This document shows, in pieces, positions 37,129 through 48,270 of a DNA stretch of 64,000 nt. The DNA comes from an uncultured bacterium (GTDB lineage Bacteria > Bacteroidota > Bacteroidia > J057 > JADKCL01). The notes below the pieces were generated by a model, which saw nothing but the letters and a program-made list of their open reading frames with translations, made no database searches and had not been told where the DNA came from. The position numbers and the translations under genes were made by a program. Every line of letters begins with the position of its first letter. Within the stretch, counting starts at the first letter, position 1. The stretch covers positions 38,574-102,573 of the forward strand of contig CAWUKT010000002.1 in assembly GCA_963923035.1 (NCBI GenBank), given 5' to 3'.

Positions 37129-38400
37129 TCAATCCCTTATTTTTTGCCCTGCATCCACCTTTTCCAAGGCCTGCCCCAAGTCCCACAACAAATCCTGGAC
37201 ATGCTCGACGCCCACGGAAAGCCGCACCATTTTCCCCGTGATGCCCATCCTTTCCCGCAGCGCCGGCTCGACGCCGGCATGGGTCATCGTGGCTGGATGC
37301 TGGGCCAGGCTTTCTGTCCCCCCCAGGCTCACTGCCAATTTGACCAGCGCCAACCCATTCAAAAACGCAAAGGCTTCCCGTTCACCGCCCCGCACATCAA
37401 AGGCCACCATAGCCCCGCCCGCTTTCAATTGGCGCTGGAAAATGTCGTAGCCCGGGTCTCCGGGCTGGAGATGTCCCAGGTAGTGGACCTTTTCGACAAC
37501 GGGATGGTCCCGTAGGAAATCGGCAACAGCCCGGGCATTTTCAGCCTGCCGGTTCATCCGCAAATGAAGCGTCTCCAAACTCCGCATCAACAGCCAGCCG
37601 GTATGCGGAGAGGCCATGTTCCCCAGAAAGGTCCGCAACGCCTTGATCCGCTGCATCCGGTCCTTTTTTCCCAGCACCGCCCCCGCAATCACATCGCTGT
37701 GCCCCCCAATGTACTTCGTCGCCGAATACACGACCAGATCGGCCCCGTGGGCCAGGGGATGCTGCCACAAGGGCCCCATATAGGTATTGTCCACGGCCAC
37801 GGTTACCGGCTCCTCGGCACTGGAAAAGTGGTCCGCAACGCGGCGGCACAACTCCAAATCGAACAGCGCATTCGTAGGATTGGCCGGGGTCTCGACGTAG
37901 ATCAATTTGAGGCGCGCGGACTTTCCCGTCGCTTCGACCATTTGGATCAGCTCTTCCTCGGTGGTATCCGGGAAAAAGCCGAGGACCTCCACGCCCATCC
38001 GCGGCAGGAATTGGGTGATGAAGTGATCGGTGCCGCCGTAAACGGGATTGCTGTACAGGAGCAGGTCGCCCTGGGAGAGGAATTCGAGCAATACGGTGGC
38101 GATGGCTGCCATGCCACTTTCAAATACGGCCGCCTGATCGGCCTGGTCCCAGAGGCAAAGGCGGTCTTCCAGGACTTCGAGGTCGGGATTGTTGAGACGG
38201 GAATAAATGAGGCCGGGCACCTCCTGGGGCCCTTGCTCGCGGAGGCCGTAGGCCACCTCAAAAAAGGCCTTGCCTTGTTCGGCGCTGTTGAAGACGAAGG
38301 TGGAGGTCTGGAAAATCGGGCACTTGAGGGCGCCTTCCGACCATTCGGGATGGTAGCCGTAGCCCATCATCAGGCTTTCCGGCCGAAATGAATGTTGCAT
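37129..38400 (-). CDS. Cys/Met-metabolism PLP-dependent enzyme, methionine gamma-lyase-like
   Basis: 423 aa with the PLP-lysine motif YSATKYIGGHSDVIAG. A divergent Lrp/AsnC regulator sits next to it, as in mdeA/mdeR-type loci. Confidence 0.85.
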   Translation of the reverse strand: MQHSFRPESLMMGYGYHPEWSEGALKCPIFQTSTFVFNSAEQGKAFFEVAYGLREQGPQEVPGLIYSRLNNPDLEVLEDRLCLWDQADQAAVFESGMAAIATVLLEFLSQGDLLLYSNPVYGGTDHFITQFLPRMGVEVLGFFPDTTEEELIQMVEATGKSARLKLIYVETPANPTNALFDLELCRRVADHFSSAEEPVTVAVDNTYMGPLWQHPLAHGADLVVYSATKYIGGHSDVIAGAVLGKKDRMQRIKALRTFLGNMASPHTGWLLMRSLETLHLRMNRQAENARAVADFLRDHPVVEKVHYLGHLQPGDPGYDIFQRQLKAGGAMVAFDVRGGEREAFAFLNGLALVKLAVSLGGTESLAQHPATMTHAGVEPALRERMGITGKMVRLSVGVEHVQDLLWDLGQALEKVDAGQKIRD

Positions 38401-38541: not shown

Positions 38542-39051
38542 ATGGATACAGGAAAAATTACGCCGGAAAACCTGGACGCGGTCGATCTTCAGATTCTGGA
38601 GTGGCTCCAGGAAGATGCCAAGCTCAATGTGAAGGAAATTGCCGATCGGCTTCACATGACCAAGACTCCGATCTACGATCGGATCAAGCGCATGGAACGC
38701 AGTGGCGTCATTGGCAAATACGTGGCCCTGCTAGAGACCCGGCGCATTTTGCCGTCAATCACCGTCTTTTGCTCCGTGACCCTCGATGTCCAGAAGGCCG
38801 AGCAGCTGGACCAGTTTTCCGAAGCAGTTAAGCAAATTCCGGAGGTCGTCGAATGCTATCTGATGGGCGGTTTGTTCGATTTCCTGCTCAAGGTGGTGGT
38901 GCGGGACCTGGATGCCTACCACCGATTTTCTTCCTACCAATTGGCCGTTTTGCCCCACGTCTCCACCATCAAATCGGCCTTTGTGCTGAAAGAGAAGAAG
39001 TATGAGACGGGATTTCCTTTGTTGGCGGGGATGCGGGAAACAAAAAAATAG
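38542..39051 (+). CDS. Lrp/AsnC family transcriptional regulator
   Basis: 169 aa with an HTH (LDAVDLQILEWLQEDAKLNVKEIADRLHMTKTPIYDRIKRME) and an AsnC-type ligand-binding (RAM) domain. Confidence 0.9.
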   Translation: MDTGKITPENLDAVDLQILEWLQEDAKLNVKEIADRLHMTKTPIYDRIKRMERSGVIGKYVALLETRRILPSITVFCSVTLDVQKAEQLDQFSEAVKQIPEVVECYLMGGLFDFLLKVVVRDLDAYHRFSSYQLAVLPHVSTIKSAFVLKEKKYETGFPLLAGMRETKK

Positions 39052-46404: not shown

Positions 46405-46457
46405 GTCGATTCGTACGCATCAAATGGCCCTGCTCCCGCGCGGAGCAGGGCCATTCT

Positions 46458-47126
46458 TTATTTGTGGAGACCGCATTCGGTCTTGAATTTCCCCATCCAA
46501 CGTCCGCTCCGCCCCTTTCCCTTGGCCGAGCACTGGATACAGCCCACCGAGCCATACCCCTTCGTTTCCAACGGATGGCGCGGCAAGTCATGGCGCTCAA
46601 AATAGGTGGCCACTTCTACCTCACTCAGATCGAGAATGGGGTAAAAACGCAATTGGTCGCCCTTTTCCTCGAAGAATCGGAGGCCATTGCGAAACTTGTT
46701 CTGGTAACCCAGCAAACCCGCGACCCAGATGTCGTAGTCTTCGCGGACATCTTCGATGGGAACGGTCTTGTTGATGCCACAACAGACGTCCGGCTCGGTT
46801 TCCCAGAGCCGGTTGTCCAGGGTATAGCGGTGGCCGGCCTCATCGGGGCGGATCGCTTCGGCCCGGATGCCCAACCGCTGGGTAAGTGCCTCCTGGTACG
46901 CGAGGGTCTCGGGAAACAGGTATCCGGTATCAATAAAATGTACCACCTGCCCGGGGATCACCTGCGCCAGGTGGTGCAGCAAAATCGCCGACGTCGTCCC
47001 AAATGACGATGTGACAAAAATTTTGCCGGGCTCAAACTCCCGGAACAAAGTTTCCAGGCGTTGGAGGGGTGACAAAGGTGCATAGCGCTCGTTGAGCGAC
47101 TTTAGGGCATACGCTTCCTGATCCAT
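46458..47126 (-). CDS. cysH: Phosphoadenylyl-sulfate (PAPS/APS) reductase
   Basis: 222 aa with the PAPS_reduct fold (VTSSFGTTSAILLHHL) and the C-terminal catalytic ECGLHK. Confidence 0.9.
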   Translation of the reverse strand: MDQEAYALKSLNERYAPLSPLQRLETLFREFEPGKIFVTSSFGTTSAILLHHLAQVIPGQVVHFIDTGYLFPETLAYQEALTQRLGIRAEAIRPDEAGHRYTLDNRLWETEPDVCCGINKTVPIEDVREDYDIWVAGLLGYQNKFRNGLRFFEEKGDQLRFYPILDLSEVEVATYFERHDLPRHPLETKGYGSVGCIQCSAKGKGRSGRWMGKFKTECGLHK

Positions 47127-47146
47127 AACCTTTCAATGTTTGGACA

Positions 47147-47181
47147 TAAAAAAAGCTCCGGGAATTACCTTCGGAGCTTGC
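47147..47181 (-). terminator. Rho-independent terminator 21 nt upstream of the cysH ATG, with an overlapping anti-terminator arm
   Basis: On the minus strand, AAGCTCCG (47179-47172) pairs with CGGAGCTT (47160-47153) across an 11-nt loop, followed by U7. GCAAGCTC (47181-47174) can instead pair with GAGCTTGC (47219-47212). Confidence 0.7.
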
Positions 47182-47188
47182 TTCAAGA

Positions 47189-47254
47189 TCAAAAAGTTGA
47201 CCTGCTATAACGCAAGCTCAGCAGTAGGGTACTGACAACAACGGCCAGTTCCAT
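47189..47254 (-). CDS. Candidate 21-codon ORF (MELAVVVSTLLLSLRYSRSTF) in the cysH leader region
   Basis: ATG at 47254 lies 45 nt downstream of a TATCTTTG -7-type box (47307-47300). The TGA at 47191-47189 sits just before the terminator. A shifted frame over the same nucleotides encodes tandem Cys codons (see findings). Confidence 0.3.
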   Translation of the reverse strand: MELAVVVSTLLLSLRYSRSTF

Positions 47255-47299
47255 ACTTCCAAACAGTCTTATTTTGCAGATCGCTATTCACAACTTGAC

Positions 47300-47307
47300 C
47301 AAAGATA
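47300..47307 (-). promoter_or_regulatory. Bacteroidota-type -7 promoter box TATCTTTG
   Basis: Exact match to the TAnnTTTG consensus on the minus strand, in an AT-rich gap, upstream of the small ORF, the terminator and cysH. Confidence 0.4.
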
Positions 47308-47493
47308 TTCCGAACCTTCGTAATATTCAATGGTTCGAAACTAATAAGCCATAAGTCTTTGGTTATCAGGGAGAAATTTATACTTCGAAAACCGAAGTTT
47401 TTTGGGAGTGAGGGGGCTTTCCATTCAAAAAAAGACCCTGAGAGAAGCAAAATCGTTTTAGGTAAATGGCCGACTTTGGGAGGGGAAAACGGA

Positions 47494-48270
47494 TCAGTTC
47501 GCGAGCCACTTTTTGAAGCTGCTGGCGCGGTCGGCCGGCACAAATATTTCGACCGGACACTCAACCAGCAAATCTAATTTTAGGCGGGAGCGCGAATACA
47601 GAATTACCTCTTTGATGCCGTCGCGGCGGACGATGGCTTTGCGGCTCGCCCGGTAAAAGTGATGGGGGTCCAGGGAATTGGTGAGTTGCTCGAGGGACTG
47701 ACTCAGGTCGTACTGCTGGCCACTGCGGGTGAGAAAATAGGTGCTTTTGGCCATCGCAAAGAAGGCCACGATGTCCTCGGTGGAAATCGCGCGGATGCGG
47801 TCCCTGACCTGCACCAAAAAGCGCTGGGTATAGCTCTGGTCGTCGGTATTGCGCAGGGCTTGGGCCAGTTGATGGTAATCGATCGAGGGGGACGCCTGTT
47901 CCGGTGCGAAGAGCGCCTTGAATTTATCGATGCTCTGCCGGAGCTCCTTGGGGCGGATCGGCTTCAGGAGGTAGTCCACCGAATAGGATTTGAAGGCCTG
48001 GAGGGCGTATTGGTCGTAGGCGGTGGTGAAAATGATGGGAACGTCCAGGGAAATTTGCTCCAATACCTCGAAGGCACTTCCATCCGCCAGGTGAATGTCC
48101 AAAAACAGAAGATCCGGCCGCGCCCGTCCCGATTTGAAATATTCCACCACCTCACGCACCGTCTCCAGTTGGGCCAGCGGCTGAATCTCCGGTGCCACAT
48201 CCTCCAAAATCCGCCGGAGGCGCTCCGCCGCCAGCGCTTCGTCCTCAACGATCAGTGCGTTGTAGCTCAT
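47494..48270 (-). CDS. LytR/AlgR family response regulator (REC + LytTR DNA-binding domain)
   Basis: 258 aa with a receiver (ALIVEDEALAAERL..DLLFLDIHLADGSAFEVL) and a LytTR C-terminal domain (FLVQVRDRIRAISTEDIVAFFA..YRASRKAIV). Confidence 0.9.
   Translation of the reverse strand: MSYNALIVEDEALAAERLRRILEDVAPEIQPLAQLETVREVVEYFKSGRARPDLLFLDIHLADGSAFEVLEQISLDVPIIFTTAYDQYALQAFKSYSVDYLLKPIRPKELRQSIDKFKALFAPEQASPSIDYHQLAQALRNTDDQSYTQRFLVQVRDRIRAISTEDIVAFFAMAKSTYFLTRSGQQYDLSQSLEQLTNSLDPHHFYRASRKAIVRRDGIKEVILYSRSRLKLDLLVECPVEIFVPADRASSFKKWLAN

Follow-up and report, generated by a model that had tools for sequence, protein, structure and literature searches.

Leader-peptide attenuators have been inferred in Flavobacterium psychrophilum for trp, ilvE, hisG and aromatic leader peptides, with none for cysteine (Cys) (PMC9723704), and these documented flavobacterial cases indicate that the mechanism operates in Bacteroidota. 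Outside this phylum, the cysS genes of Rhodobacterales are predicted to be preceded by a ribosome-mediated attenuator named uORFC-8-2 (Brewer et al. 2021, PMC8632094). Mycobacteria carry polycysteine leaderless small open reading frames (sORFs) (Canestrari et al. 2020, 10.1101/834739); experiments on the single case dissected, Ms5788A of M. smegmatis, showed an effect on translation, exerted by uncovering a ribosome-binding site. Cys-rich leader peptides without terminators have been predicted for actinobacterial cys operons (Seliverstov et al. 2005, PMC1262725). Here we analyse the leader of a minus-strand cysH gene in a 64,000-nucleotide (nt) stretch of DNA from an uncultured member of the Bacteroidota (the window; GenBank assembly GCA_963923035.1, contig CAWUKT010000002.1, positions 38,574 to 102,573). 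A preliminary description of the window had proposed that this leader may be a cysteine-responsive attenuator, pointing to polycysteine leader ORFs in mycobacteria and naming no known equivalent in Bacteroidota. The mycobacterial precedent is indeed published, and full-text literature searches returned no cysteine attenuator for cysH, for sulfite reductase or for Bacteroidota. Recurrence in relatives, conservation of the reading frame, compensatory changes in the anti-terminator and constant spacing all support the proposal. We consider it highly probable that the cysH leader is a ribosome-mediated (leader-peptide) transcription attenuator sensing charged tRNA-Cys; cysH would then most likely be switched on only when cysteine is short.

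Anatomy and conservation of the cysH leader

The gene itself (46458-47126, minus strand) encodes a 222-amino-acid phosphoadenylyl-sulfate reductase, a family acting on adenylyl sulfate (APS) or phosphoadenylyl sulfate (PAPS), and its product belongs to the cysteine biosynthesis pathway (PF01507, 5e-32; NCBIfam equivalog NF002537, 189 bits against a cut-off of 154). All leader elements lie on the same strand. The sORF runs for 28 codons from a GTG at 47291 to a TAG at 47207-47205 (47205-47291) and encodes (M)NSDLQNKTVWKYGTGRCCQYPTAELAL; its direct translation by script reads VNSDLQNKTVWKYGTGRCCQYPTAELAL. Codons 18-19 are the tandem Cys codons TGT TGT (47235-47240), the proposed sensing site. 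Downstream, the arms AAGCTCCG (47179-47172) and CGGAGCTT (47160-47153) form the stem of an intrinsic terminator (47148-47179, regions 3:4, −12.5 kcal/mol), in a fold that contains two extra G-C pairs inside the terminator loop. The preliminary description had given this stem eight base pairs (bp) and a following U7. Seven T are present (47154-47148), and the terminator ends 21 nt before the cysH ATG (47126) as claimed, but two of the T lie within the 8-bp arm, so that the run is U5 after an 8-bp stem or U7 after a 6-bp stem. A simple hairpin scan missed this terminator solely because its nominal loop exceeds 8 nt.

Between sORF and terminator lies the alternative pairing. The anti-terminator 5' arm GAGCTTGC (47212-47219, region 2) begins 15 nt past the last Cys codon, with 4 nt separating its end from the stop codon; together with the 3' arm GCAAGCTC (47174-47181, region 3) it makes an 8-bp helix that has 6 nt in common with the terminator 5' arm, and the two structures are mutually exclusive. 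In the minimum-free-energy fold, an upstream helix, P1 (47199-47282), pairs GATCTGC (47282-47276) with GCAGGTC (47205-47199) and encloses a hairpin carrying the Cys codons; in this ribosome-free RNA, the P1 domain ties up the anti-terminator 5' arm. A small hairpin, GGTCAA-CTTT-TTGATC (47187-47202), forms inside the anti-terminator loop in the stalled-ribosome fold. The 169-nt leader as a whole folds more stably than shuffled sequences (z = −2.6). A scan of the entire window against Rfam 15 at gathering score yielded no family, and a permissive one of 46900-47700 (E <= 10) gave nothing above noise. When checked by script, the arms of both helices and their 6-nt overlap, the −7-type box, the GTG, the tandem Cys codons, the stop codon and the cysH ATG all proved to lie where the preliminary description had placed them.

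The nearest cysH proteins are 74, 71 and ~56-62% identical to that of the window and come from metagenome assemblies, this lineage being poorly sampled. For a type III glutamine synthetase encoded in the window, the named hits are all from metagenome-assembled genomes labelled Bacteroidota or Bacteroidia bacterium, which places the organism in Bacteroidota. A contig search with the single cysH protein as query found no relatives, and DNA of the close-relative loci was fetched by exact-protein look-up. Four leaders (window, L001, L002 and L009/L093) could be aligned, including the promoter and the start motif GTTGTGAATAG, with an ATG variant of the motif in L009/L093. In all four, the Cys frame is open from the conserved start and places Cys-Cys at codons 18-19, encoding (M)NSCLYIRRVGKTFSGMCCRYLEQ in L001, (M)NRDLHTIPVWKFGPGTCCRRRLYELA in L002 and MNAKYSTCSLFGCRLMGCCPAVEPE in L009/L093. 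Translation would begin at a GTG in the window, L001 and L002, and at an ATG in the same place in L009/L093, a substitution that supports initiation at this site. At the second Cys codon the window and L001 have TGT, which is replaced synonymously by TGC in L002 and L009/L093. Beyond these points the sORF tails vary (24-28 codons) and most non-Cys residues differ, while the remaining two frames begin with a stop or have no conserved start. Judged from this alignment, the sORF is conserved as a reading frame and not as a peptide.

Two other ways of reading the same nucleotides were rejected. The preliminary description had noted an ATG-initiated hydrophobic frame (from 47254, MELAVVV...) as an alternative, which has no counterpart in L001 or L002: the former lacks any start in that frame, and the only ATG of the latter comes late, past the position equivalent to the Cys codons. 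Reading TGTTGT as Val-Val or Leu-Leu fails because those frames have stops or no starts, and the TGTTGC of L002 breaks Val-Val.

Pairing is maintained along with the frame. In the alignment of the four leaders (A4), the anti-terminator helix is 93.8% paired, and at two of its pairs both partners have changed (one U-A became C-G, the other G-U). The preliminary description had named loss of the Cys-Cys frame or of the GAGCTTGC/GCAAGCTC complementarity in close relatives as refuting its proposal; neither has been lost in these relatives. The terminator stem is 96.9% paired and almost invariant, and its core GCTCCG/CGGAGC recurs in L005 and L094/95. P1 has 83% of cells paired and one compensatory pair (C-G to U-A), and the small hairpin at 47187-47202 has 76% of cells paired without covariation. 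The near-identical strains L090-L092 point to selection at shorter range: one difference falls in the 215 nt of promoter and leader, whereas the adjoining 160 nt upstream of them contain nine (Fisher p = 0.003); third codon positions of cysH differ at 3-5% in the same strains.

We then extended the analysis of switch geometry to 15 leaders, 11 of them beyond the alignable four, all of which have 2-5 consecutive Cys codons. For each, we sought the best duplex that pairs sequence past the last tandem Cys codon with the terminator 5' arm, the latter extended by 8 nt upstream. This anti-terminator duplex was stronger than in dinucleotide shuffles in 14 of the 15 (p = 0.002-0.12; window p = 0.03-0.04), with a Fisher's combined p of 1e-7 over 12 lineage-level leaders. 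The core of the duplex starts 8-21 nt (median 15) past the last tandem Cys codon in 14/15 leaders, and ends between −15 and +20 nt relative to the stop codon. Such a start falls just past the 3' edge of a ribosome that holds the last Cys codon in its A site, and a ribosome terminating at the stop codon would cover the end, which is the geometry that ribosome-mediated attenuation requires. Constrained folding gave matching outcomes: the free RNA folds into upstream pairing plus terminator in 9/10 leaders folded (the exception being L018), a ribosome masked at the Cys codons lets the anti-terminator form, at −10 to −26 kcal/mol, in a transcript that extends as far as the terminator loop, and a ribosome masked at the stop codon lets the terminator form.

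Recurrence, promoter and genomic setting

Within the cysH clade of the window (56-74% protein identity), a tandem-Cys sORF followed by a terminator precedes cysH in 8/10 distinct lineages (window, L001, L002, L009/L093, L003, L005, L094/95 and L006), and in the relatives with a leader the terminator lies 22-29 nt ahead of the gene. The more distant of these leaders cannot be aligned with that of the window; they encode MNVFHNPNYPCNMACCRAENHGDLED (L003), MNTNRTYLIHFYKCCCMQFKLGALRN (L005), (M)INNQNIFKCCCRKGQ (L094) and (M)NCACVTCCPGPYDPGPDEV (L006). Two alignment-based scans added 160 further, more distant cysH loci, those of the first scan all at <= 51% identity. The DNA gathered, the window included, was searched on both strands for sORFs (<= 45 codons) that contain consecutive Cys codons and are followed within 90 nt by a hairpin and T run. 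This search recovered the cysH leaders together with about 6 unrelated, chance hits per 1.06 Mb scanned, a rate far exceeded by the recurrence of the architecture in relatives. Among 80 unrelated cysH loci from GTDB representatives a single one had the unit directly upstream of the gene (L018, a Lewinellaceae metagenome-assembled genome (MAG), encoding MLSPATTSSWNKMCCCFGCTKRSGRAFLC before its terminator). In a Chitinophagales MAG (L039), an sORF encoding MSNSLKISMYNCCCCMKIYRKE and a terminator precede a 1-Cys peroxiredoxin gene, followed by cysH. The window contains a second tandem-Cys sORF with a hairpin (7279-7184), which we set aside as probably a chance occurrence: it overlaps a 1493-amino-acid ORF and its hairpin is weak.

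Leaders of this type also occur in series and before other sulfate-assimilation genes. On the minus strand of L006, two complete Cys-leader units follow one another (2612-2689 and ~2380-2535), MTTNFHNTCCCPS and then MKHLNYHTCPCCCRPIAGRGDPLCSAT, each followed by a strong terminator of its own, with CCC in the former and C-x-CCC with further Cys in the latter. Downstream of both comes a DUF2061/sulfite-reductase (NIR_SIR)/TP_methylase operon, which runs divergently from the cysH leader of the same organism. Two G+C-rich JGI metagenome contigs with strong terminators, whose cysH proteins are 33-36% identical to that of the window, provide further examples: a CACCCCC leader stands directly before cysH in L173 (2723-2892), and a CCCCC leader stands before a 572-amino-acid ORF and then cysH in L168 (752-957). 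L168 probably does not belong to Bacteroidota, because its promoter is sigma-70-like, and a similar leader design appears to exist outside the phylum too. In the more distant, non-alignable leaders (L003, L005, L094/95, L006, L018, the L006 sulfite-reductase pair, L173 and L168), the elements are those of the window leader, with their order and spacing unchanged. The device is thus sporadic, and strongly associated with sulfate-assimilation genes.

Upstream of the sORF, the −7 box TATCTTTG (47300-47307, minus strand) conforms to the TAnnTTTG-type consensus (PMC7366714); at the corresponding position, relatives carry TATATTTG or TATTATTG. A −33 element TTG (47328-47330, minus strand), 20 nt upstream of the −7 box and invariant in the window, L001, L002 and L009, completes a promoter of Bacteroidota type. 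As the preliminary description had noted, direct reading of the sequence between the window terminator and the cysH ATG finds no full TAnnTTTG box. The spacer between −33 and −7 is filled by a palindrome that the preliminary description had not reported, ATTACGAAGGTTCGGAAT (47307-47324, core CGAAnnTTCG), which is invariant in alignment A2. Its conserved form at cysH promoters is ATTnCGAAnnTTCGnAAT, located inside or upstream of the promoter. The core was found upstream of cysH in 9/11 clade loci (window, L001, L002, L093, L003, L005, L094, L007 and L008, the last two without attenuator) versus 0/80 unrelated cysH loci; within the window the palindrome is perfect only at the cysH site, and mismatched sites occur at chance level. 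In L003, L005 and L094 it stands ~150-170 nt upstream of the sORF, beside a block of conserved sequence, CTGTATCTTCGG, an arrangement suggestive of a longer transcript in these loci. The palindrome is likely to be the operator of a sulfur or cysteine regulator of cysH initiation, which suggests a second, protein-based layer of control on the gene.

In the window, cysH is monocistronic and is followed by a bidirectional terminator (46423-46455) and a convergent DUF6263 gene. On the far side of the leader lies a LytTR response-regulator gene (47494-48270), and the minus-strand gap between it and cysH was read directly. The cysH protein and alignment A1 display an invariant Cys-Cys (residues 115-116), a CxxC (196/199) and a C-terminal ECGLH motif, a pattern that we take to be that of Fe-S-containing APS reductases and not of E. 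coli-type PAPS reductases; the substrate may therefore be APS despite the family name. Elsewhere in the window, a cystathionine gamma-synthase family gene (37129-38400, minus strand) is divergent from a gene at 38543-38900 (plus strand) that by eye resembles an Lrp/AsnC-type regulator. Inspection by eye of the region upstream of this cystathionine gamma-synthase family gene revealed no obvious Cys leader, and the attenuator does not appear to extend to this gene.

Several observations concern gene starts around these leaders. An ATG directly follows the terminator U run (TTTTTTTATGYCYRAA) in the window (47147-47133), L001 (~4001), L002 (~290) and L093 (~946). It is in frame with cysH in L001 and L002, where gene callers begin the protein (229 amino acids), and in the window it opens a four-codon ORF (MSKH and a stop) that ends 8 nt before the real cysH ATG. 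The annotated start of P0006 in L003/L004 (4001-4035) was placed inside the terminator hairpin, giving 240 amino acids instead of ~222, and in L006 (2806-2919) a 37-amino-acid gene was called across the leader in a non-Cys frame. In L040 (~2440-2510), a Cys-rich sORF encoding MCIFVPAQGCYPNREALILLCCCNFPCV ends in an ATGA that overlaps the cysH start codon, with no terminator, an arrangement that could be one of translational coupling, not termination control.

Proposed mechanism and alternative explanations

Read at the level of sequence, the window leader has every feature by which the class of ribosome-mediated attenuators can be recognised: an sORF with start and stop, tandem Cys codons, a terminator before the gene, a mutually exclusive anti-terminator with covariation, and the geometry of stalling and stopping. 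From these features we infer where transcription starts, and further that the sORF is translated, that the ribosome stalls at its Cys codons when Cys-tRNA is limiting, and that the two helices compete kinetically. Transcription would start from the Bacteroidota-type promoter, a few nt before the GTG at 47291 given that the −7 box ends 8 nt upstream of it, and a ribosome would translate the 28-codon sORF. With plentiful Cys-tRNA, it would reach the TAG at 47207-47205 and mask GAGCUUGC (47219-47212); GCAAGCUC would then be left to take part in the terminator hairpin (47179-47153, followed by the U run), halting RNA polymerase 21 nt ahead of cysH. With scarce Cys-tRNA, the ribosome would stall at UGU UGU (47240-47235) with its footprint ending just short of GAGCUUGC, which would be free to pair with GCAAGCUC once the latter is transcribed, blocking the terminator and allowing cysH to be transcribed. 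If no ribosome were present, the P1 domain would sequester the anti-terminator arm, making termination the default. The palindromic operator would probably add separate, protein-based control of initiation.

A number of observations weigh against this model. The GTG of the window group lies 8 nt past the −7 box (7-8 nt in relatives), implying a 5' untranslated region (UTR) of ~0-5 nt and an sORF mRNA that would be leaderless or nearly so; leaders this short are rare in Bacteroides, where 3.7% of 5' UTRs are < 10 nt (PMC7366714). Initiation at GUG with a 0-5 nt leader is the weakest link of the model; in L005 and L003, apparently longer, A-rich leaders precede the sORF. Clade members L007 and L008 have neither sORF nor terminator. 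Individual p-values for the anti-terminator are modest (0.002-0.12), and that of L039 is not significant (p = 0.73), for which reason L039 is kept as a weak example only. Since the alignment comprises four sequences, covariation rests on few events. Finally, equilibrium folding favours the terminator over the anti-terminator in most leaders, which means that the decision would have to be kinetic and co-transcriptional, as in trp.

Among the alternatives, the leader could be a ligand-, tRNA- or protein-binding RNA switch (a riboswitch or T-box-like element) that acts independently of translation, with the Cys codons incidental. The upstream domain of the window group is well folded (z = −2.6) with the Cys codons in a hairpin loop, and the leader is under purifying selection along its entire length; both points speak in its favour. 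We nevertheless regard it as quite unlikely: Rfam offers no match even at E <= 10; what L003, L005, L006, L018, L168 and L173 have in common is confined to the tandem-Cys ORF, the anti-terminator and the terminator, with no aptamer-like sequence or structure; the frame and its start are conserved and the change in the Cys codons is synonymous; and a constant spacing from Cys codon to arm would be meaningless for a riboswitch. Alternatively, the stalled ribosome could mainly control cysH translation or mRNA stability, with the hairpin occluding the initiation region. The distance of only 21 nt between terminator hairpin and cysH ATG, the in-frame ATG directly after the U run in L001 and L002, and the translational mode of the mycobacterial precedent (10.1101/834739) would fit this explanation. 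Yet a G+C-rich stem with 5-8 U behind it, the hallmark of intrinsic termination, is present in every leader, and the two complete units in series in L006 make sense for termination. Bacteroidota make little use of Shine-Dalgarno pairing, which leaves no obvious element to sequester, and we consider primary control at this level unlikely.

Two further explanations would dissociate the sORF from cysH regulation. According to one, it is an independent gene for a Cys-rich micropeptide (e.g. metal- or redox-active) with its own terminator, cysH being expressed from elsewhere or by leakage. The 2-7 Cys held by the leader peptides and the position of the L039 sORF before a peroxiredoxin gene could be read in this way, but the peptide sequences are unconserved beyond the Cys run, the 21 nt between terminator and cysH hold no promoter box, and the specific association with sulfate-assimilation genes, as well as the pairing and spacing of the anti-terminator, would be left unexplained; we find this highly improbable. 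The other would assign regulation wholly to a transcription factor binding the palindrome, with hairpins and sORF neutral. It draws on the presence of the core in nine of the 11 clade loci, including L007 and L008, which lack the attenuator, and its absence from the 80 unrelated ones. It is just as improbable, since it accounts for neither the conserved terminator, the compensatory changes in the anti-terminator nor the Cys frame, and since leaders exist in loci without the palindrome (L006, L018, L168 and L173). Control through the palindrome and attenuation are compatible, not exclusive.

Relation to known attenuators

To our knowledge, the control of sulfate assimilation in Bacteroidota is essentially undescribed, and the leader offers a concrete mechanism for it, a tRNA-Cys-sensing attenuator combined with a candidate operator. 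The device appears to have arisen repeatedly, given that the leaders are common only in layout and not in sequence, and that similar ones occur in metagenome contigs that are probably from outside the phylum. More speculatively, uncultured Bacteroidia may possess a 'cysteine ribulon', in which cysH and DUF2061/sulfite-reductase/uroporphyrinogen methyltransferase units are gated by independently evolving Cys sORFs with terminators, some of them serial and some with near-leaderless GUG starts, together with a palindrome-binding factor. We put this forward as a tentative possibility; if true, it would represent, as far as our literature searches reach, the first terminator-based cysteine attenuator for sulfate assimilation, and would point indirectly to tight coupling of transcription and translation in Bacteroidota and to GUG initiation there on near-leaderless mRNAs. 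On the practical side, gene callers err at these loci, placing starts inside the terminator or calling sORFs in the wrong frame, and the unit, compact at ~150 nt, could find use in the synthetic biology of Bacteroidota as a part that responds to cysteine.

Compared with classical attenuators (E. coli trp, his, leu and thr, and those of F. psychrophilum), the window leader is alike in its codons for the end product, its terminator before the gene, its overlapping anti-terminator and its predicted default termination in the absence of translation. The cysteine leaders described here differ from them in the amino acid, cysteine, and in the target, cysH or sulfite reductase; the window leader further differs in having only two regulatory codons, a GTG at or near the predicted 5' end, and no homology to Rfam leaders. 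Indeed, it matches no covariance model among the leader and riboswitch families of Rfam, which include SAM-I, SAM-II, T-box and Bacteroid-trp.

The closest match in architecture is uORFC-8-2, which likewise has two tandem Cys codons (at about codons 14-15). These sit within its first stem, ahead of a terminator stem that ends in a U run. No homology was detected between it and the window leader, and none was expected. Whereas uORFC-8-2 is found exclusively before cysteinyl-tRNA synthetase in alpha-proteobacteria, the leaders described here precede sulfate-assimilation genes in Bacteroidota, and we do not count them as members of that class. The mycobacterial and actinobacterial leaders resemble ours in having at least two consecutive Cys codons in an unannotated 5' sORF, which may be leaderless, ahead of cysteine or sulfur genes. 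The mycobacterial idea of a 'ribulon' with several loci per genome also finds a parallel in L006. Unlike the mycobacterial class, however, where no conserved terminators were found, every leader described here has a canonical intrinsic terminator and an overlapping anti-terminator, and the presence of the terminator sets these leaders apart from that class. The mechanism is itself classic and its principle is not new; according to the literature searches, the gene and the phylum are. The cysH leader would thus extend cysteine-codon attenuation from Actinobacteria, where it is translational, and from the predicted attenuator of alpha-proteobacterial cysS, to a terminator-based form acting on cysH and sulfite reductase.

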